From Alphaproteobacteria bacterium (GTDB taxonomy: Bacteria > Pseudomonadota > Alphaproteobacteria > RF32 > CAG-239), in NCBI GenBank assembly GCA_045603405.1, contig JAZUMA010000032.1:64102-128101 (forward strand): 64,000 bases of DNA. Direction: 5' to 3'. The notes beneath the pieces were generated by a model. That model made no database searches. It worked only from the letters and a program-made list of their open reading frames with translations, and was not told the origin of the DNA. Made by a program: the position numbers and the translations under genes. This document shows positions 4,271-41,420 of this stretch, in pieces (the first letter of the stretch is position 1; each line of letters starts with the position of its first letter).

Positions 4271-4949
4271 TAATATCTGCGGCATCCAACATCTCATCAA
4301 TAATCAACTTATGCGCAATTCCTTCGTACTCTAAAGCAGTCCATGCAATATGGTGTTGTTCTAACCATTTTTTTGTAAAATCAAGAGTTTTGTATTGAAC
4401 AGAAATATCGCCAGTACCATGAAACAAATAGACTTCCGGATGAGAAACAATTTCTTTATCGAGTAAATCTTTACCGCAAACAATACCGGCAAAAGGAAAA
4501 ATTCCGCCTATCTCATAACGTCTTGTTAATCCTGTATAAAGAGCCAGCATTGCCCCTTGAGAAAAGCCCATAACATAAGTATTTTTATTTTTAATATGAT
4601 GTTTTCTTTGCAATTGTGTAATAAAACGATTAACTCTTTTTGCAGCTGAACTGATACGAGTACCGGCACGATTATAAATTTCAACAATTTCTTCGGTGGG
4701 TGTTTCAGGCAATCGTCTTCTTTTATCCGGATCAATATCTGTAAGCGGATACCATTGCCTTTTTTCAGGATGTCTTTCACTGGGCATATCAGCTTCCGGC
4801 ATAACAATCAGTGTATTTTCAAGATTTTTTGCTAATATCTCGGCATAAGGATAAACATCATCAGCAAAGCTCGTATAGCCATGCAAAAAGATAATAAGTT
4901 TTTTTACTGCACCTTTTGGCTTAATTTGTTTATAGCAAAATTCTGTCAT
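4254..4949 (-). CDS. phospholipase/carboxylesterase-family alpha/beta hydrolase
   Basis: It has the GFSQGAML nucleophile elbow, a late HG.GD segment and the size typical of the Abhydrolase_2 family. Confidence 0.7.
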   Translation of the reverse strand: MTEFCYKQIKPKGAVKKLIIFLHGYTSFADDVYPYAEILAKNLENTLIVMPEADMPSERHPEKRQWYPLTDIDPDKRRRLPETPTEEIVEIYNRAGTRISSAAKRVNRFITQLQRKHHIKNKNTYVMGFSQGAMLALYTGLTRRYEIGGIFPFAGIVCGKDLLDKEIVSHPEVYLFHGTGDISVQYKTLDFTKKWLEQHHIAWTALEYEGIAHKLIIDEMLDAADIINQQN

Positions 4950-5023
4950 AAATCACCTTCACAAACTTATAGATAAAGATAAAAGATTAAAATATAGCTA
5001 ATAAAAATGAGGTAAAAAAATGG

Positions 5024-7783: not shown

Positions 7784-9436
7784 ATGGCTGTGTCACCGGC
7801 TGTAGCAGAATTGTTAGAAGAATATAAACGTTTTGCGCCATTAACAATGAAAGAATTATTTGCTAAAGACGAAAAACGTGCTGAAAAATATACCATAGAG
7901 TTTGAAAATCTTACTTTTGATTATTCAAAAAACCGCTTTGATGAAAATGTTTTGCAAGCTCTGTTAGCTTTGGCAGAAGAACATCACTTAAAAGACCGCA
8001 TAGAAGATATGTTTAGCGGCAAAAAAATTAATATAACCGAAAATCGTGCGGTTTTGCATACGGCATTGCGTAATTTTTCCGGCAATTCTATCTGTGTGGA
8101 TGGTCAGGATGTTATGCCGGAAATTCGCCGCGTTTTAGCTAAAATGAAAGATTTTTCCGAAGCTGTTCGCAATGGAACATTCAAAGGTTATACCGGCAAA
8201 AAAATAACCAATATTGTTAATATCGGTATTGGTGGGTCTGATTTAGGTCCGTATATGGTTACGTCTGCCTTAAAAAAATATTGGGCAAAAGACATAAATT
8301 GTTATTTTATTTCTAACATAGACGGCACTGCCTGCGCAGAAGTTTTAAGTAAAATCAATCCTGAAGAAACATTATTTATTGTCGCATCTAAAACTTTTAC
8401 CACCATAGAAACTTTAACCAATGCCAAAACTTGCCGCGAATGGCTGGTTAAAGCTTTGGGTGATAAAGCTGTTGCTAACCATTTTGTTGCCCTGTCAACT
8501 AATGCCAAAGCCGTTGCCGAGTTTGGCATTGATACCGCTAATATGTTTGAATTTTGGGATTTTGTTGGCGGTAGATATTCTTTATGGTCAGCTATCGGTT
8601 TATCAATAGCATTAGCGATTGGTTATGATAATTTTGAAGCCTTATTAAAAGGTGCCGAAGCCATGGATAAGCATTTCCGTACCGCTCCGTTTGATAAAAA
8701 TATTCCGGTTATCATGGCATTGCTCGGTATTTGGTATAATGATTATTATAACATCCATCGTTATGCGGTCATTCCCTATGACCAATACTTGAAATTCTTG
8801 CCGTCATATCTTCAGCAATTAGATATGGAAAGCAATGGTAAGTCTGTTCGCTTAGATAATAAGAAAATTACCGATTATGCCACCGGTCCGGCATTATTTG
8901 GCGGGGCAGGGACGGATGTTCAACATTCTTTCTTCCAATTATTGCACCAAGGAACAGAACCTGTACCGGTAGATTTTATTATTCCGGCTGTTTCACAAAA
9001 TGAAATCGGTAAACACCATGAGATTTTATTAGCTAATATTTTAGCGCAAGCAGAAGCCTTGATGAAAGGTAAAACAGAAGAAGAGGCGGCTGCAGAATTA
9101 AAAGCTGCCGGCAAAGATGAAGCAACAATCGAAAAATTGAAACTTAATAAGAGTTTTGCCGGAAATCGTCCGAGCAATATGTTTATCATAGATAAACTAA
9201 CCCCATATAATTTAGGTATGCTGATTGCTATGTACGAGCATAAGGTTTATACCCAAGGGGTTATATGGGAAATCGATTCGTTTGATCAATGGGGTGTTGA
9301 ACTTGGTAAACAACTGGCTTTGAAAATCTTGCCGGAATTGGAAGAGGGGGTATCTGCCAATCATGACAGCTCTACAACGAAATTGATAAATAAAGTTCGT
9401 AAGTTGCGTGTTAAAATGACCTCAAAAGCAGCTTAA
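7784..9436 (+). CDS. pgi: glucose-6-phosphate isomerase
   Basis: 550 aa with the full-length PGI signatures DYSKN, GIGGSDLGP, GGRYSLWSAIG and QHSFFQLLHQG. An AAGGAG SD is present. Confidence 0.95.
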   Translation: MAVSPAVAELLEEYKRFAPLTMKELFAKDEKRAEKYTIEFENLTFDYSKNRFDENVLQALLALAEEHHLKDRIEDMFSGKKINITENRAVLHTALRNFSGNSICVDGQDVMPEIRRVLAKMKDFSEAVRNGTFKGYTGKKITNIVNIGIGGSDLGPYMVTSALKKYWAKDINCYFISNIDGTACAEVLSKINPEETLFIVASKTFTTIETLTNAKTCREWLVKALGDKAVANHFVALSTNAKAVAEFGIDTANMFEFWDFVGGRYSLWSAIGLSIALAIGYDNFEALLKGAEAMDKHFRTAPFDKNIPVIMALLGIWYNDYYNIHRYAVIPYDQYLKFLPSYLQQLDMESNGKSVRLDNKKITDYATGPALFGGAGTDVQHSFFQLLHQGTEPVPVDFIIPAVSQNEIGKHHEILLANILAQAEALMKGKTEEEAAAELKAAGKDEATIEKLKLNKSFAGNRPSNMFIIDKLTPYNLGMLIAMYEHKVYTQGVIWEIDSFDQWGVELGKQLALKILPELEEGVSANHDSSTTKLINKVRKLRVKMTSKAA

Positions 9437-37349: not shown

Positions 37350-37359
37350 ATACAGAAAG

Positions 37360-37462
37360 CCACCCGCAAGGGGTGGTCTTTTTAATTTTCGCTCGCATAC
37401 TCATACCACAAGGGAAAACCTAAATAAAAGTAATGGGCGTCGAGCCGCCTCGACTGGTTGCG
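37360..37462. repeat. 103-nt direct repeat, copy A (uninterrupted). It contains a terminator-like hairpin and ends with the last 8 nt of tRNA-fMet.
   Basis: It is identical, apart from one T/C difference, to 40554-40577 plus 41273-41351. It starts with ccacccgcaaggggtgg and ends with tggttgcg, the complement of CGCAACCA. Confidence 0.9.
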
Positions 37463-37636
37463 CGCGACTAACAAAAAACGGAAACTTATACCAAGTTAAC
37501 ATATTGATTTTTAATGATAATTCAAATATGCATAAAATCACGATATTTCACCAATCTCCGCCCATCAAAAAATAGAAAATATTATTGAAATTAAAAATAA
37601 ATAAGTTAATATGAAAAAAACATTAAGAGGGGTGAA

Positions 37637-38563
37637 ATGTTTAGATTGTTTTCTCTATTAAAAAAAGAAATAAAACCATATAATAGCGGATATTTGCCAG
37701 AGCTGGATGGGCATCAAATACATTATGTGGAAATAGGTAATCCAAATGGCAAAATTGTATTATCTTTTCACGGTGGTCCTGGTGGAAGATCAAATCCACA
37801 ACGAGCAGATATTTTTGATTTAAAAAAATACAGAGTCATTATGTTTGACCAACGTGGTTGCGGTCAAACTATTTCTAAGGATTTATTATATAAAAATACG
37901 ATACAACAAACTGTATATGATGCCAAACGTGTATTAGATTTTTTAGAGATACAGGAAAAGGTGATTATACACGGATGTTCTTTTGGAACAGCTTGTGCAT
38001 TATTGTTTGCAAGCCAATACAAAGATAAAGTTGCAAGTATTGTTCTTTTGAGTGTCTTTTTGGGCAATACAGAATATGTGCACATGTTTGATGAAGTTTG
38101 CGCATTGTTTTATCCTGAGATAAAGCCGCTGTTTTTTAAAATATCGCAAGGAGAAAATGCTATTGATTATTTTTATCAGTGCGCTATTTCAAATGATGAA
38201 CAAAAGCAAAAAATAGCTTTACAATATTACGGAGCAATAGAGCACTTAATGGGATCAACTAAATGTACTTTTCCAGAAATAGAGGAAATTAATCAATGGA
38301 AGTTAAATAGTTTTAGGGTTTATATGCATTATATACAAAATAAGATGTTTTTACAAGAAAACGAGCTATTGGATATAGCTAGTACATTGGAAAATATTCC
38401 TGTATATATTTTTCATAATCGCTTAGATATGGTATGTCCAGTAGTTAACGCGTATGTTTTAAGTAAAAAGATACCTCAAGCGCATTTGCGTATAGTTGAA
38501 GACAGTGGACATATCAGTAAAAAGATGTTTGACTGTGCACAAACAACATTAACGACCATCTGA
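37637..38563 (+). CDS. pip: prolyl aminopeptidase (S33 alpha/beta hydrolase)
   Basis: It contains the HGGPGG motif, FDQRGCGQT, the GCSFG nucleophile elbow, and a C-terminal SGH. Confidence 0.85.
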   Translation: MFRLFSLLKKEIKPYNSGYLPELDGHQIHYVEIGNPNGKIVLSFHGGPGGRSNPQRADIFDLKKYRVIMFDQRGCGQTISKDLLYKNTIQQTVYDAKRVLDFLEIQEKVIIHGCSFGTACALLFASQYKDKVASIVLLSVFLGNTEYVHMFDEVCALFYPEIKPLFFKISQGENAIDYFYQCAISNDEQKQKIALQYYGAIEHLMGSTKCTFPEIEEINQWKLNSFRVYMHYIQNKMFLQENELLDIASTLENIPVYIFHNRLDMVCPVVNAYVLSKKIPQAHLRIVEDSGHISKKMFDCAQTTLTTI

Positions 38564-39640
38564 AAAATAAGTTGAAGATAAAGAGTTTGTTTGTTCCATA
38601 AATGGAGATTGCGTTAAACGTATACTGCCATTTTTTGAGAATAGTGTAGCATTTATTCCAATAGGTATTGTGAGTTTATATGTACAATGCCCCAAAGGAA
38701 AACCATAAAATAGATTATCAATGTCGTATTTTTGTTTTATTTGATTAAGAAATTTGAAAATTTCTATTTTTTTCTTAGTATCAGGAATAGGATTGCTTCT
38801 ATCGCATATAGAACTGAAAATGATTGCGGATGCTTCAGAAAGTGGAGATGTTTTATTGATAAGATCCAAATAATGTTCAACATTTTCAAGTGTCGTATCT
38901 ATCGTATCCAAAAAGAGCAATCTGCCTTTTAGGTTTTGCATCAATCCTATTTTTTGCAACAAAACAAGAGAGGGTAAAGAAATAACAGAGATATTGCCGC
39001 AAACAAAATCATTTGAACTTAATGAGATATAATGATTATCCTGACGTTGTTTTTTTAATTTTTCAGTTTTTGCATAAATATTGGGGATTTCTGGACTTAT
39101 TGATCCTTTATCAATAGTCATGGCACGCTCATAGTTGCTCATACCTTCAAAAGAAGTATATATGGTTGAGAGAATACGCCAAAAATTAACAATATTATAC
39201 TGAACTTCCCGTTTTGAAGACCGATCATTTAAAAAATTAAGATGAGGGGCGTGAAATGTAACTATATGAGAATTTTCAGAGATAGCTGTCAATAATGATG
39301 AAATATAACTGTATCCACAAATTATTTTAGGATGCTTATTTATTTTATCGAAATCAAGTTTAGCAAGTATATCATAAATTGCAGGCCCACCACAAATAGG
39401 AAACACAGCTTTAACAGCATCATCACAAAAAGCATCTATTAATGCGTGGCATCTATTTTCAGGAGATTGCCAATTTTCGTTAATAATATTATTTTTAACA
39501 TTTAACCCTAAATGTCTGAGATAATCTATAACATAATATTCCTGATTACGAAAACATTCAGGCAATGGACCAGCCGGATTTACTAAAGCCACTGTATCTC
39601 CTGATACAATTTTATGTGGTATGTATTTAATATTATTCAT
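38549..39640 (-). CDS. divergent S66-family (LD-carboxypeptidase / MccF-like) serine hydrolase
   Basis: It contains GDTVALVNPAGPL at the N-terminus, CGYSYISSLL (the G-Y/F-S-D nucleophile motif with D replaced by Y), LLFLDTID (acid position E replaced by D), and GFPLGHCTYKLTIPIG (the His motif). Its start overlaps the upstream stop by 8 nt. Confidence 0.65.
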   Translation of the reverse strand: MNNIKYIPHKIVSGDTVALVNPAGPLPECFRNQEYYVIDYLRHLGLNVKNNIINENWQSPENRCHALIDAFCDDAVKAVFPICGGPAIYDILAKLDFDKINKHPKIICGYSYISSLLTAISENSHIVTFHAPHLNFLNDRSSKREVQYNIVNFWRILSTIYTSFEGMSNYERAMTIDKGSISPEIPNIYAKTEKLKKQRQDNHYISLSSNDFVCGNISVISLPSLVLLQKIGLMQNLKGRLLFLDTIDTTLENVEHYLDLINKTSPLSEASAIIFSSICDRSNPIPDTKKKIEIFKFLNQIKQKYDIDNLFYGFPLGHCTYKLTIPIGINATLFSKNGSIRLTQSPFMEQTNSLSSTYFSDGR

Positions 39641-40373
39641 TATTTACAATATCCAAAATTTTTTGCATATGTTCGTCATCTACGCCATATTGCTTTCGTG
39701 TATCAGCGAAGAAATTATTTTCTATAAAGTTATTATCATCTTTTATAAATTGTGATATTTTAATTAGAGATGACTTAGTATTTTGTTTATACTCACGCAT
39801 TTTAGCATACACACAGTTTCTCAAAAAGACAGTTTCCGAACAAGACAGTGATGAAAATTTACTCTTATCTAATTCAACAGCTAACTCTTCGCGTATTTTT
39901 TTCATTATTTGAAGATAAGAAATATTAGCAGATTTAATATCTCCGTTATCAATGTGTAGCAAAAGTTCATTGAAATTAATATCATTTAAAATTTTATATC
40001 CGAAAGAAATAGAAACATCAGGAGCATCAATTATACAATCCTTTTTTATTATAGAGTTAATATCGTTTTTTATAAAAGAAAAAAAATTATGAACCATATC
40101 ATCATCAGAACAGACACCTATTGCAAAAATTTCTTCGCCAGAAGGAATAAAGGCAAAATCAGTTATAGATGTATACTGGTCAATATAGTGTTTAATAGTA
40201 GCTCCAATTATTCTGTTATATATATCAACCAAGTTTTCAGCCATTGGTCTACCTCGTTGAGATACAAATATACCAAGATTGTCAATATCACCGGTAATGG
40301 CAAAAATTGAATTTTTTGAAGAATCATATTTTTGTATAACTTGAACTATTTTTTTACTCCAAATTCTAATCAT
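39633..40373 (-). CDS. stand-alone GGDEF/Cas10-palm-like nucleotide cyclase (mCpol-like), no sensor domain
   Basis: IFAITGDIDNLGIFVSQRGRPMAENLV aligns by eye to the GGDEF segment D-I-D-x-F-K..G-H..G-D..L and to Cas10 GDISGIQxFI. FIPSGEEIFAIG aligns to GGDEF/GGEEF, and VSISFGY to the following beta strand. An AAGGAG SD is present, and about 100 aa of helical C-terminal tail follows. Confidence 0.55.
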   Translation of the reverse strand: MIRIWSKKIVQVIQKYDSSKNSIFAITGDIDNLGIFVSQRGRPMAENLVDIYNRIIGATIKHYIDQYTSITDFAFIPSGEEIFAIGVCSDDDMVHNFFSFIKNDINSIIKKDCIIDAPDVSISFGYKILNDINFNELLLHIDNGDIKSANISYLQIMKKIREELAVELDKSKFSSLSCSETVFLRNCVYAKMREYKQNTKSSLIKISQFIKDDNNFIENNFFADTRKQYGVDDEHMQKILDIVNNE

Positions 40374-40398
40374 ATAATCTCCTTACAGATATTAAAAA

Positions 40399-40497
40399 TT
40401 ATATAATTAAGAATATAGAAAAGAACAAAAAAAGCAAGAATAAAATACCATTGGCGGTTTCATAAGAATAACCTCCATACTTCTGGCTAGATTTCAT
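40399..40497 (-). CDS. possible 32-aa single-TM micropeptide ORF upstream of the cyclase gene (speculative)
   Basis: Own translation: MKSSQKYGGYSYETANGILFLLFLFFSIFLII*. Its stop lies 25 nt before the cyclase ATG. Its own SD is poorly spaced (about 14 nt). Confidence 0.15.
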   Translation of the reverse strand: MKSSQKYGGYSYETANGILFLLFLFFSIFLII

Positions 40498-40553
40498 GGG
40501 TAGTGAACCAACTCCTTCGTTGCTTCAAGCTATTCTCTATAACCAATAAAAAA

Positions 40554-40577
40554 CCACCCGCAAGGGGTGGTCTTTTT
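40554..40577. repeat. 103-nt direct repeat, copy B, left part (before the IS insertion)
   Basis: ccacccgcaaggggtggtcttttt is identical to 37360-37383. Confidence 0.9.
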
Positions 40578-41272
40578 GTATCCTGAAAACCCCGCGTTAG
40601 ACGCGGGGTTCAGTAAAGCTTATAGCGGTGAAGTTGTCAATGCGCTCCAATTAGGTTAAAATTTTGCGGTCTGCCAAGACGCAAAATACCTAATTGGAGG
40701 TCAATTATGAAAACTGACATAGATAGATTAGCACATACAACATGGAATTGTAAATACCATATTGTATTCGCACCAAAGTATCGTCGTAAAGTGTTTTACG
40801 GTGGTAAACGCAATGAAATAGTAAAAATATTAAAAGAACTATGCCGTTGGAAAGGTGTAGAAATATTGGAAGGAGAAGCTTGTCCAGACCACATACACAT
40901 ATTAGTAAAGATACCACCCAAAATGAGTATTTCAGGATTTATGGGATTCTTAAAAGGAAAGAGTAGTCTCATGATATATGAAAAATGGAGCAACATAAAA
41001 TACCAATACCGAAACAGAGAATTTTGGTGTAAGGGGTACTATGTTGATACGACAGGTAAGAATACCGAAAAAATCATGGAATATATCAGAAATCAGCTTA
41101 AGGAAGATCAAATCGCCGAACAGCTGACAATGGATTTGAACGACCCGTTTACGGGTAAGTAGTAACAGATTGCGTCTGGCAGACGCTAAGCAACCCCGTT
41201 CAGGGGTTGCCAGTGGTAAAGGCTTATAGCCGCATATGAAGAACCCCGCGTTTTACGCGGGGGTTTCTTTTT
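40578..41272 (+). mobile_element. IS200/IS605-family insertion sequence (tnpA only), 695 bp
   Basis: The boundaries come from comparison with the uninterrupted repeat copy at 37383/37384. Subterminal hairpins are aaccccgcg-ttaga-cgcggggtt (40588-40610) and aaccccgcg-tttta-cgcgggggtt (41242-41265). Both the left flank and the IS right end read TCTTTTT. Confidence 0.9.
40707..41162 (+). CDS. tnpA: IS200/IS605 Y1 (HUH) transposase TnpA
   Basis: 151 aa, containing WNCKYHIVFAPKYRRK, PDHIHILV (the HUH motif), and FWCKGYYV (the catalytic Tyr region). Confidence 0.95.
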   Translation: MKTDIDRLAHTTWNCKYHIVFAPKYRRKVFYGGKRNEIVKILKELCRWKGVEILEGEACPDHIHILVKIPPKMSISGFMGFLKGKSSLMIYEKWSNIKYQYRNREFWCKGYYVDTTGKNTEKIMEYIRNQLKEDQIAEQLTMDLNDPFTGK

Positions 41273-41343
41273 AATTTTCGCTCGCATACCCATACCACAA
41301 GGGAAAACCTAAATAAAAGTAATGGGCGTCGAGCCGCCTCGAC

Positions 41344-41351
<8 letters not shown>
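41273..41351. repeat. 103-nt direct repeat, copy B, right part (abuts and enters tRNA-fMet)
   Basis: It is identical to 37384-37462 except C/T at one position. Its last 8 nt are the tRNA-fMet 3' end. Confidence 0.9.

Positions 41352-41420
<69 letters not shown>

Follow-up and report, generated by a model that had tools for sequence, protein, structure and literature searches.

What kind of system joins a minimal nucleotide-synthase domain to a serine hydrolase? The question is raised by 64,000 nucleotides (nt) of DNA from an Alphaproteobacteria bacterium (assembly GCA_045603405.1, contig JAZUMA010000032.1), referred to here at full length as the window, in which the gene for a palm-domain protein of 246 amino acids (aa) runs directly into the gene for a hydrolase of peptidase family S66, itself convergent with the gene for a hydrolase of family S33. 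The original prediction read the first two genes as a sensor-less, mCpol-like cyclase coupled to a divergent S66 enzyme, and the third as a possible further component. The answer reached here is that the palm enzyme, whose two-metal site is kept intact in the aligned sequences, is linked obligately to catalytically intact hydrolases, in some genomes being fused to one, and that the module moves as a unit. Its function, meaning the product of the palm, the part of the hydrolases as receivers and the biological role of the whole, is inferred from these arrangements and is weighed in the last section.

The palm protein and its family

The motifs from which a palm domain was predicted, namely GDIDNLG (D29, D31), GRPMAENLV (41-49) and SGEEIF (78-83), are all present, and in an alignment of 38 homologues their key residues do not vary (G28, D29, D31, L33, G34, G41, R42, A45, E46, G79, E80 and E81, followed further on by F124 and G125). 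The metal-binding acids, D29, D31, E80 and E81, are among these invariant positions. Read from the sequence, the motif spacing, D-x-D-(9)-G-[H/R]-x-x-[G/A]-[D/E]-x-x-[L/V], equals that of the GGDEF consensus. An AlphaFold2 (AF2) model (pLDDT 94.8) predicts a beta-alpha-alpha-beta-beta-alpha-beta palm, with strands at residues 22-31, 70-78, 81-88 and 121-129 and helices at 33-40, 42-65 and 91-112, followed by a helical bundle. Strand 1 of the model ends in D29/D31 and the turn of the beta2-beta3 hairpin is formed by G79-E80-E81, as in GGDEF and Cas10. The best PDB match of this model in Foldseek was Cas10/Csm1 (6xn7_A, E 1e-5), with many GGDEF domains at about 1e-4, both groups at probability 1.0; Thg1 (E 1.3e-3) and class III cyclases ranked below them, and a viral structure library gave phage GGDEF proteins and Thg1. 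The mCpol entry 9NWN was absent among the best 50 structural matches. By predicted fold and active site the protein is a Cas10/GGDEF-type palm, and the superfamily named in the original prediction is the one in which structure comparison places it.

The description of the protein as little more than a palm domain has to be given up. A conserved helical domain takes up about 110 residues at the C-terminus (135-244), and R161, D169, K172, F173, R185, K196, Y229 and G230 are invariant in the same 38 homologues; the protein therefore exceeds a bare palm. No sensor or transmembrane (TM) segment precedes the palm, which begins at about residue 20, so that this part of the description stands. The palm proteins are mostly acidic, as is expected of a small-molecule enzyme.

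Homologues found in a word-indexed search fall into 51 clusters of 187-296 aa, all of them unnamed. An exhaustive hidden Markov model (HMM) search of 1.84 billion representative proteins returned 91 at E <= 1e-3, 84 of them at E <= 1e-10, with no continuity into the GGDEF, Cas10 or mCpol families. No family assignment was obtained from Pfam, NCBIfam or PADLOC beyond weak matches of seven of the 38 members to Cas10-Cmr2_palm2 (best E 4.6e-4), which was the only Pfam palm model touched. Pfam GGDEF (PF00990) gave no match at E <= 1 for the window palm or any of the 38 members, and the Pfam copy searched presumably held an mCpol model. Among PDB sequences, phmmer and profile searches yielded nothing significant. 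Judged by sequence profiles, this is a new, small and sharply bounded family of about 90 representatives outside GGDEF and mCpol.

Cas10 (Csm1/Cmr2) provides the best structural match, and its two acidic metal-binding sites have their equivalents in the window protein. The latter differs in being a single palm of 246 aa without an HD domain, a second palm, a crRNA complex or nearby cas genes. Activation by target RNA, as in Cas10, is impossible for the window palm. With GGDEF domains the protein shares topology and motif spacing (D-x-D ... G-[HR]-x-x-[GA]-[DE]-x-x-[LV] ... G-E-E-[IVL]-F ... S-x-G), but it has no RxxD I-site, no sensory N-terminus and no Pfam GGDEF match. In diguanylate cyclases of the PleD type the guanine is contacted by an Asn and an Asp; going by these PleD residue roles, invariant Val37 and Glu46 stand in their places in the window family.

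Partner genes and gene orders

Gene neighbourhoods were tabulated for 35 non-duplicate loci from metagenomes and GTDB genomes, to which two (L039 and L041) were added later. An S66 gene adjoins the palm gene in 28 of the 35 loci, or in 30 of 37 with the additions, and the palm-hydrolase pairing recurs in about 30 unrelated genomes. The same linkage is reached from the other side: P0143, a member of the S66 clade found independently of the palm search, was predicted to have a palm gene next door, and its locus was found to hold an S51 gene, the S66 gene and a convergent gene for a 250-aa protein 35% identical to the window palm (E 1e-43). The co-occurrence with S66 for which the original prediction asked is borne out. 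Seven loci have no S66 gene beside the palm; four of these are of a CARF type described below, one (L029) has S51 only, one (L034) holds only a 105-aa palm fragment, and one (L016) has no hydrolase neighbour. The lone palm of L016 carries D31N. This gene (7890-8759 of its locus, with motif 1 reading GDLNNLG) adjoins tRNA-Lys and a GT4 glycosyltransferase gene and is apparently a decaying copy.

Gene orders track the palm phylogeny in four types. Type A, from gut Alphaproteobacteria including the window, has palm and S66 translationally coupled in that order, with S33 convergent downstream or else upstream. In type B, from the Candidate Phyla Radiation (CPR; Patescibacteria), the palm is followed by a convergent S66-S51 pair, S51 being replaced by a PF06821 serine hydrolase in a sub-branch. 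Type C, from Saccharibacteria, Microgenomates and metagenome-assembled genomes of Gammaproteobacteria, consists of co-directional palm, S51, S66 and S-adenosylmethionine (SAM) methyltransferase genes. Type D, which includes Zixibacteria, has the palm followed by a CARF (Cas_NE0113)-sigma54-AAA+ protein.

The palms of type D form a sister clade. Their genes lie directly upstream of CARF (PF09623)-Sigma54_activat AAA+ genes, with a 4-nt overlap in L007, and the encoded partner joins CARF to a sigma54-interaction AAA+ domain with a lid. CARF-linked and S66-linked palms cannot be told apart at any alignment position, and the same chemistry is therefore likely in both branches. The genes downstream of the CARF-AAA+ partners showed nothing informative. 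The module of L007 (1-4765) lies downstream of genes for a ResIII/SNF2-like helicase, a DUF3800 protein and a UDG-like protein, a context resembling restriction or defence; an association of RtcR-like CARF regulators with restriction-modification systems was noted by Makarova and co-authors (2014).

The S66 partner of the window has both Pfam domains of its family above their cut-offs (PF02016, 76.8 against 25 bits; PF17676, 42.7 against 23.7 bits), and the assignment made in the original prediction, with its altered GYSY and FLDT motifs, is upheld. In alignments with BA_5613 and MccF, Ser111 and His318 fall on the catalytic Ser and His, and D243 replaces the Glu. Among 23 S66 partners, Ser111 is kept in 22, His318 in all 23, and an Asp or Glu at the acid position likewise in all 23. 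These partners share the signature GFPxGHxxYKLTxP and invariant H133, E145, W154 and N187, and have GYS-Y/F or GSS where the MccF type has GYSD. A canonical S66 enzyme encoded elsewhere in the L014 locus lacks both the signature and the invariant residues of the clade. In a search started from the S66 side the signature persisted to E 1e-39, and the next matches, at about 1e-22, were canonical secreted enzymes without it. The best sequence match in PDB was 4e5s (E 3e-17), with Escherichia coli MccF at 5e-9. The best 20 PDB matches of the AF2 model (pLDDT 88) all belong to the MccF clade, ahead of any LdcA, and several of the matched structures carry AMP or aminoacyl-sulfamoyl nucleosides. Against the NCBIfam model of LdcA (NF008424) the protein scores 51.1 bits for a cut-off of 378, short of equivalog level. 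Sequence and model together indicate that the S66 partner is catalytically intact and nearer to the MccF clade than to LdcA, and by the same similarity it may be an MccF-type aminoacyl-nucleotide amidase. In L033 (9353-11468), two tandem S66 paralogues follow S51; in the second the catalytic Ser is exchanged for Ala (GYAGLS), and this copy may therefore be an inactive binding subunit.

A second serine hydrolase accompanies palm and S66. In the window it is of family S33; in other loci S51 or a PF06821 hydrolase takes this place. The S33 protein matches Pfam Abhydrolase_1 (E 1.4e-21) and scores 196.7 bits with TIGR01249, under the cut-off of 259.75; it is related to S33 alpha/beta-hydrolases and stands near prolyl aminopeptidase, without being an assured orthologue. 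Its gene lies inside the repeat-bracketed cassette in three loci (the window, L001 and L021), in two gene orders, which bears out its suggested place as a third component. S51 adjoins the palm in 17 loci and a methyltransferase in seven. In the S51 partners the serine of GxSAG and the histidine are retained, and the third residue of the triad is unconserved in several C-type members. The methyltransferase matches generic class I SAM methyltransferases only and could be assigned to neither the Hen1 nor the MccD type; Hen1 structures gave no match.

Natural fusions of palm and S51 occur in P0061 (488 aa) and P0109, and in the P0061 locus (L039) the fusion gene is followed by S66. Processing of the palm C-terminus by the carboxypeptidase-like S66, in the manner of Cap2/Cap3, is disfavoured because in P0061 that terminus is fused directly to S51. 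Within L039 (1-9334) the fusion and S66 genes are co-directional with Archease, RtcB and four unknown genes (encoding 307, 175, 564 and 598 aa), the last four having no Pfam match and not being found near other modules. Genes of the GNAT group lie near the alphaproteobacterial modules of L001 (6782-7369) and L005 (3211-3684), with matches to Acetyltransf_3 and Acetyltransf_1, that of L005 to Acetyltransf_3 being weak. They are unconserved across loci. RimL and MccE2 belong to this Acetyltransf_3/Acetyltransf_1 group.

The cassette and its insertion sites

The original prediction placed the gene pair in a repeat-bracketed islet at tRNA-fMet beside an insertion sequence (IS), and this can now be sharpened (Table 1). 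The window repeat appeared at first as 98 nt and extends to 112 nt, with 108 of 112 positions matching, once an IS200 copy is removed from its right half. The 3.08 kb between the repeat copies contain exactly the S33, S66 and palm genes. Six of 21 loci examined have modules bracketed in this way by repeats of 40-220 nt. Besides the window these are L001 (63 nt, the right copy overlapping the 3' end of tRNA-Lys), L021 (about 220 nt, at 1760-1977 and 4769-4985, reaching the 3' end of tRNA-Gln), L020 (115 nt, touching the 3' end of tRNA-Ile), L017 (a perfect 40-nt repeat) and L026 (50 nt). In four of the six the repeat overlaps the 3' end of a tRNA, and in none is there an integrase inside the cassette. 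Across 29 loci, a tRNA gene lies within 450 nt of the module edge in six (binomial P 0.0016 against the tRNA density of the flanks), and the flanking genes vary from locus to locus. Because the L021 repeat takes in the last 85 nt of the S66 gene, its left copy resembles a leftover from an earlier tandem copy or from a recombination between cassettes. A gene for a CCA-adding enzyme is found less than 2 kb from the module in two unrelated loci (L003, 8982-10472; L031, 4587-6125), and seven tRNA genes surround the module in L003.

Table 1. Features of the palm-S66-S33 cassette and its borders, in window coordinates
Feature	Coordinates	Strand	Remarks
Left copy of the 112-nt direct repeat	37356..37467		Terminator-like hairpin, spacer and 13-nt copy of the tRNA 3' end
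S33 alpha/beta-hydrolase, prolyl-aminopeptidase-like, 308 aa	37637..38563	+	Third cassette gene
S66 serine hydrolase, 363 aa	38549..39640	-	Partner clade nearest MccF; Ser111, His318, Asp243
Palm nucleotidyltransferase/cyclase (predicted), 246 aa	39633..40373	-	Palm core about 20-130; helical domain 135-244
32-aa open reading frame, palm leader	40399..40497	-	Unsupported as a gene
Right repeat copy, part 1 (hairpin)	40550..40577		Split from the remainder by IS200
IS200/IS605-family element	40578..41272 (ends approximate)	+	Transposase 40707-41162; subterminal hairpins 40585-40611 and 41241-41267
Right repeat copy, part 2	41273..41356		Overlaps the last 13 nt of the tRNA
tRNA-Met (CAT)	41344..41420	-	ARAGORN; Rfam tRNA 57.4 bits; apparent insertion site of the cassette

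A C1:A72 mismatch makes the adjoining tRNA-Met initiator-like (tRNA-fMet). The GC-rich hairpin of the repeat, AAAGCCACCCGCAAGGGGTGGTCTTTTT, occurs at 37356-37383 and again as part 1 of the right copy, and scores as terminator-like on either strand, closing off hppA to one side and insulating the palm leader to the other. The IS200 copy, with its transposase recognised by Pfam Y1_Tnp (E 1.3e-39) and NCBIfam IS200 (E 1.4e-42), interrupts the right repeat at its hairpin end and does not belong to the module. At its 5' end (40588-40700) lies an STnc490-like Rfam match, near threshold at 53.2 bits against a cut-off of 56. An Rfam scan of the islet gave the tRNA and this IS200-associated match only, with no riboswitch or other known RNA, and promoter-like sites in the islet were no more frequent than in shuffled sequence.

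The open reading frames (ORFs) of the cassette sit where they had been placed, and the stop of the palm gene overlaps the start of S66 by the 8 nt that had been reported, reading ATGAATAA at the junction. The 3' ends of the convergent S33 and S66 genes overlap by 15 nt. The pair had been called far more AT-rich than its neighbours, with 18-30% guanine plus cytosine (G+C). Its G+C is indeed lower, and the rest was overstated: the palm gene has 27.1%, S66 30.7% and S33 31.9%, against a window mean of 34.6%, 36.3% for hppA and 39.2% for lpxI, and palm plus S66 lie at about the 5th percentile among 1-kb windows of the stretch, which is modestly low. A possible single-TM micropeptide gene had also been noted. 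The 32-aa ORF exists; it lies within the cassette, 25 nt before the palm gene, and encodes a peptide ending in LII. Searches by tblastn and small-ORF scans found no counterpart upstream of 17 homologues, including one 62% identical, and L021 and L030 leave no room upstream of the palm for a leader ORF. As a gene it is rejected, nothing comparable standing in that position in these homologues.

Possible functions of the module

Three known systems invite comparison. The mCpol enzymes make cyclic nucleotides constitutively, which are read by a partner effector, and the Panoptes papers describe S-2TM-beta, CARF-2TM, SAVED-2TM and HEPN partners and mention no peptidase or sigma54 regulator (PMC12657218, PMC12657230, PMC13577387). 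Like mCpol (OptS, Panoptes), the window palm is a stand-alone, sensor-less minimal palm whose gene immediately precedes that of a partner in a small operon, and its sister clade has a CARF-containing partner. Unlike mCpol, the window family keeps an S/G-G-E-E hairpin, which is nearly absent from OptS (PMC12657218), has the extra conserved C-terminal helical domain and shows no sequence-profile relation. Its partners are S66, S51, S33 and methyltransferase or a soluble CARF-sigma54 AAA+ protein, and not 2TM-beta, CARF-2TM, SAVED-2TM or HEPN. The label mCpol-like, as applied in the original prediction, fits the palm in so far as it is minimal and stands alone; it fails in that no mCpol, GGDEF or PADLOC profile is matched and the G-E-E hairpin resembles that of GGDEF.

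In the microcin C system, MccF (S66) and MccG (S51) hydrolyse the carboxamide bond of aminoacyl-nucleotides (PMC9239234). The module has the same two peptidase families, in both cases beside a nucleotidyltransferase and sometimes an enzyme of methyltransferase fold. It differs from a microcin C cluster in having no MccB (ThiF-like), MccA peptide or exporter, from MccF in that its S66 partners are a clade of their own (GYS-Y/F or GSS, signature GFPxGHxxYKLT), and from MccG in that the third S51 triad residue is unconserved in several members. Nucleotides are the ligands of CARF domains. For RtcR-like CARF-NtrC proteins, Makarova and co-authors predicted the sensing of such ligands and a role as ligand-gated sigma54 activators (PMC4012209), and the sister-clade partner resembles these proteins in combining CARF, sigma54-interaction AAA+ and lid. 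It differs from RtcR in that its CARF is of the Cas_NE0113 type and its gene is coupled to a palm synthase; the window has no CARF gene.

The reading preferred here, and held tentatively, is that of a mobile nucleotide-signal synthase with hydrolases as receivers or outputs. The palm would be an active, sensor-less nucleotidyltransferase or cyclase that builds, out of nucleoside triphosphates (probably ATP), a small oligonucleotide messenger, cyclic or linear, to be received by the genes travelling with it. In one branch of the family the receiver would be the CARF-sigma54-AAA+ regulator. In the branch of the window the receivers would be the MccF-clade S66 enzyme and the second serine hydrolase (S33, or S51/PF06821 elsewhere), often with a SAM methyltransferase. 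The nucleotide may bind the adenylate-recognising catalytic region of the hydrolases and thereby switch how they act on an aminoacyl- or peptidyl-nucleotide, or on a short peptide. The whole could be a conflict cassette, complete in itself and passed on horizontally, that serves defence or addiction. A nucleotide messenger is indicated as the product by the pairing of the sister branch with a CARF-sigma54-AAA+ regulator. By analogy, S66 (or S51) would hold the operon position of the receptor-effector in mCpol operons (as described in PMC12657218), and a capacity of the hydrolases to bind nucleotides is suggested by the proximity of the S66 model to AMP-bound MccF structures and by the action of the S51 enzyme MccG on aminoacyl-nucleotides.

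Several points weigh against this reading. The hydrolases have no recognisable sensor domain (CARF, SAVED or STING), and binding of a messenger to a hydrolase catalytic domain is conjecture. Palm, S51, S66 and methyltransferase in one operon resemble a small-molecule pathway more than a signal-effector pair, and no route is evident from hydrolases of small substrates to the arrest of phage or cell. Most CPR loci sit among housekeeping and not defence genes, and in many of them the palm and hydrolase genes are convergent and therefore transcribed separately. The replacement of the guanine-contacting Asn and Asp by V37 and E46 makes nucleotide specificity unreadable. Moreover, PADLOC-DB v2 gave no meaningful match for palm, S66 or S33, and IMG/VR viral contigs contained no palm relatives.

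Aminoacyl-nucleotide chemistry is a serious rival, if itself rather unlikely, because the S66 and S51 families both include known aminoacyl-nucleotide amidases. The palm would nucleotidylate an adenosine-containing amino-acid conjugate, much as Cas10 makes SAM-AMP, to yield an aminoacyl- or peptidyl-nucleotide messenger or toxin, which the methyltransferase would decorate and S66 with S51 or S33 would dismantle, in turnover or in toxin-antidote addiction. The experimental demonstration of such amidases in both peptidase families (PMC9239234) agrees with this, as do the closeness of the S66 model to nucleotide-bound MccF structures, the pathway-like operon of nucleotidyltransferase, methyltransferase and two hydrolases, and the palm-S51 fusion, which would suit consecutive steps. 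Cas10 palms can also use non-nucleotide acceptors, AMP-O-Tris being an example (PMC13398931), and small mobile repeat-bracketed cassettes suit addiction modules. However, palm nucleotidyltransferases make phosphodiester bonds and not amides, so that an acceptor with a pre-existing cleavable amide is needed, and the CARF-type loci hold no extra enzymes to make one. In addition, a toxin fused to its own antidote would be unusual, and there is no conserved exporter or precursor gene. A resistance cassette against imported peptidyl-nucleotide (microcin-C-like) antibiotics, in which an aminopeptidase-type hydrolase (S33, S51 or PF06821) and the MccF-type S66 dismantle the drug while the palm is auxiliary, through ribose modification or an alarm signal, is improbable. 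Stand-alone MccF and MccG homologues do confer microcin C resistance and are expected to be recruited by mobile elements (PMC9239234), the cassette is mobile, and RimL/MccE-type GNAT genes lie near the modules of L001 and L005. Nevertheless, the palm is the most conserved member of the module and accompanies a CARF regulator, with no hydrolase, in the sister clades. The decay of the orphan palm in L016 points to mutual dependence rather than an auxiliary role, and the GNAT neighbours are not conserved.

There is a slim chance that the hydrolases are instead the input of a physiological circuit, binding or processing peptides (murein tetrapeptide, dipeptides) and regulating the cyclase by contact, as GlmM regulates DacA, with the receptor encoded elsewhere and no conflict involved. 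The palm-S51 fusion and tight adjacency suit physical regulation, the palm has no sensor domain of its own, and the CPR loci keep housekeeping company. Set against this are the rarity and patchiness of the family (about 90 representatives among 1.84 billion proteins), the mobility of the cassette, an S66 partner nearer to MccF than to LdcA (51 bits for a cut-off of 378) and a separate canonical S66 enzyme in at least one genome. Repair of RNA or tRNA ends is very unlikely. In this scheme the palm would act on tRNA ends like Thg1, the hydrolases would free the 3' adenosine of aminoacyl or blocked groups, and the methyltransferase would protect the end. Thg1 is among the structural matches (E 1.3e-3), but Cas10 and GGDEF are clearly better ones. 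The fusion locus shares one gene string with Archease and RtcB, but in one locus type only. A CCA-adding enzyme is encoded less than 2 kb away in L003 and L031, and the CARF partner is RtcR-like in architecture (PMC4012209). Many modules abut tRNA genes, but these differ widely in identity and are overlapped at their 3' ends by the bracketing repeats, which fits insertion sites rather than substrates. The palm proteins, moreover, are mostly acidic and the methyltransferase does not match Hen1 structures. A microcin-C-like cluster for a ribosomally synthesised and post-translationally modified peptide, with the 32-aa ORF as precursor and the palm in place of MccB, could appeal to the position of that ORF in the cassette, 25 nt from the palm, and to the company of a nucleotidyltransferase with MccF-like and MccG-like enzymes. 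It is nearly excluded, because no MccB-like (ThiF/E1-like) enzyme, exporter or Asn-terminal precursor lies in the bracketed cassette or is conserved in relatives; the ORF is unconserved in any relative, has no room in L021 and L030, and encodes a peptide ending in LII, not Asn.

That minimal Cas10-like cyclases drive immunity is a recent finding (Panoptes), and their known partners are membrane effectors with classical nucleotide sensors. Here a separate palm family, which profile libraries do not yet cover, is tied to two families of serine hydrolases with aminoacyl-nucleotide-cutting members, and neither the palm-S66/S51 nor the palm-CARF-sigma54 pairing is described in the literature searched, which excluded the founding 2015 account of mCpol. 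If the hydrolases receive the signal, they would form a new effector class with a new way to sense a nucleotide; if they act on the product, amino-acid-nucleotide conjugates would be palm-made messengers or toxins. In the latter case an (oligo)adenylate bearing an aminoacyl or peptidyl group, or a decorated form of it, would serve as an intracellular messenger or toxin, be dismantled by MccF- and MccG-type amidases and be read by the CARF-sigma54 branch as the same compound. This is doubtful; were it true, a novel chemistry of signalling or antimetabolites, needing neither ribosomal peptides nor MccB, would be carried by a mobile cassette that targets tRNA genes. In the CARF-sigma54 branch, the supply of a transcription activator by a dedicated synthase can be put to the test, and the module is a clean example of an integrase-less, repeat-bracketed cassette at tRNA 3' ends, spanning Alphaproteobacteria and CPR, lineages whose accessory systems are poorly known. 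It is a mobile unit centred on a nucleotide synthase, with partner genes described nowhere in the literature searched, and there is a realistic chance that its chemistry is new.

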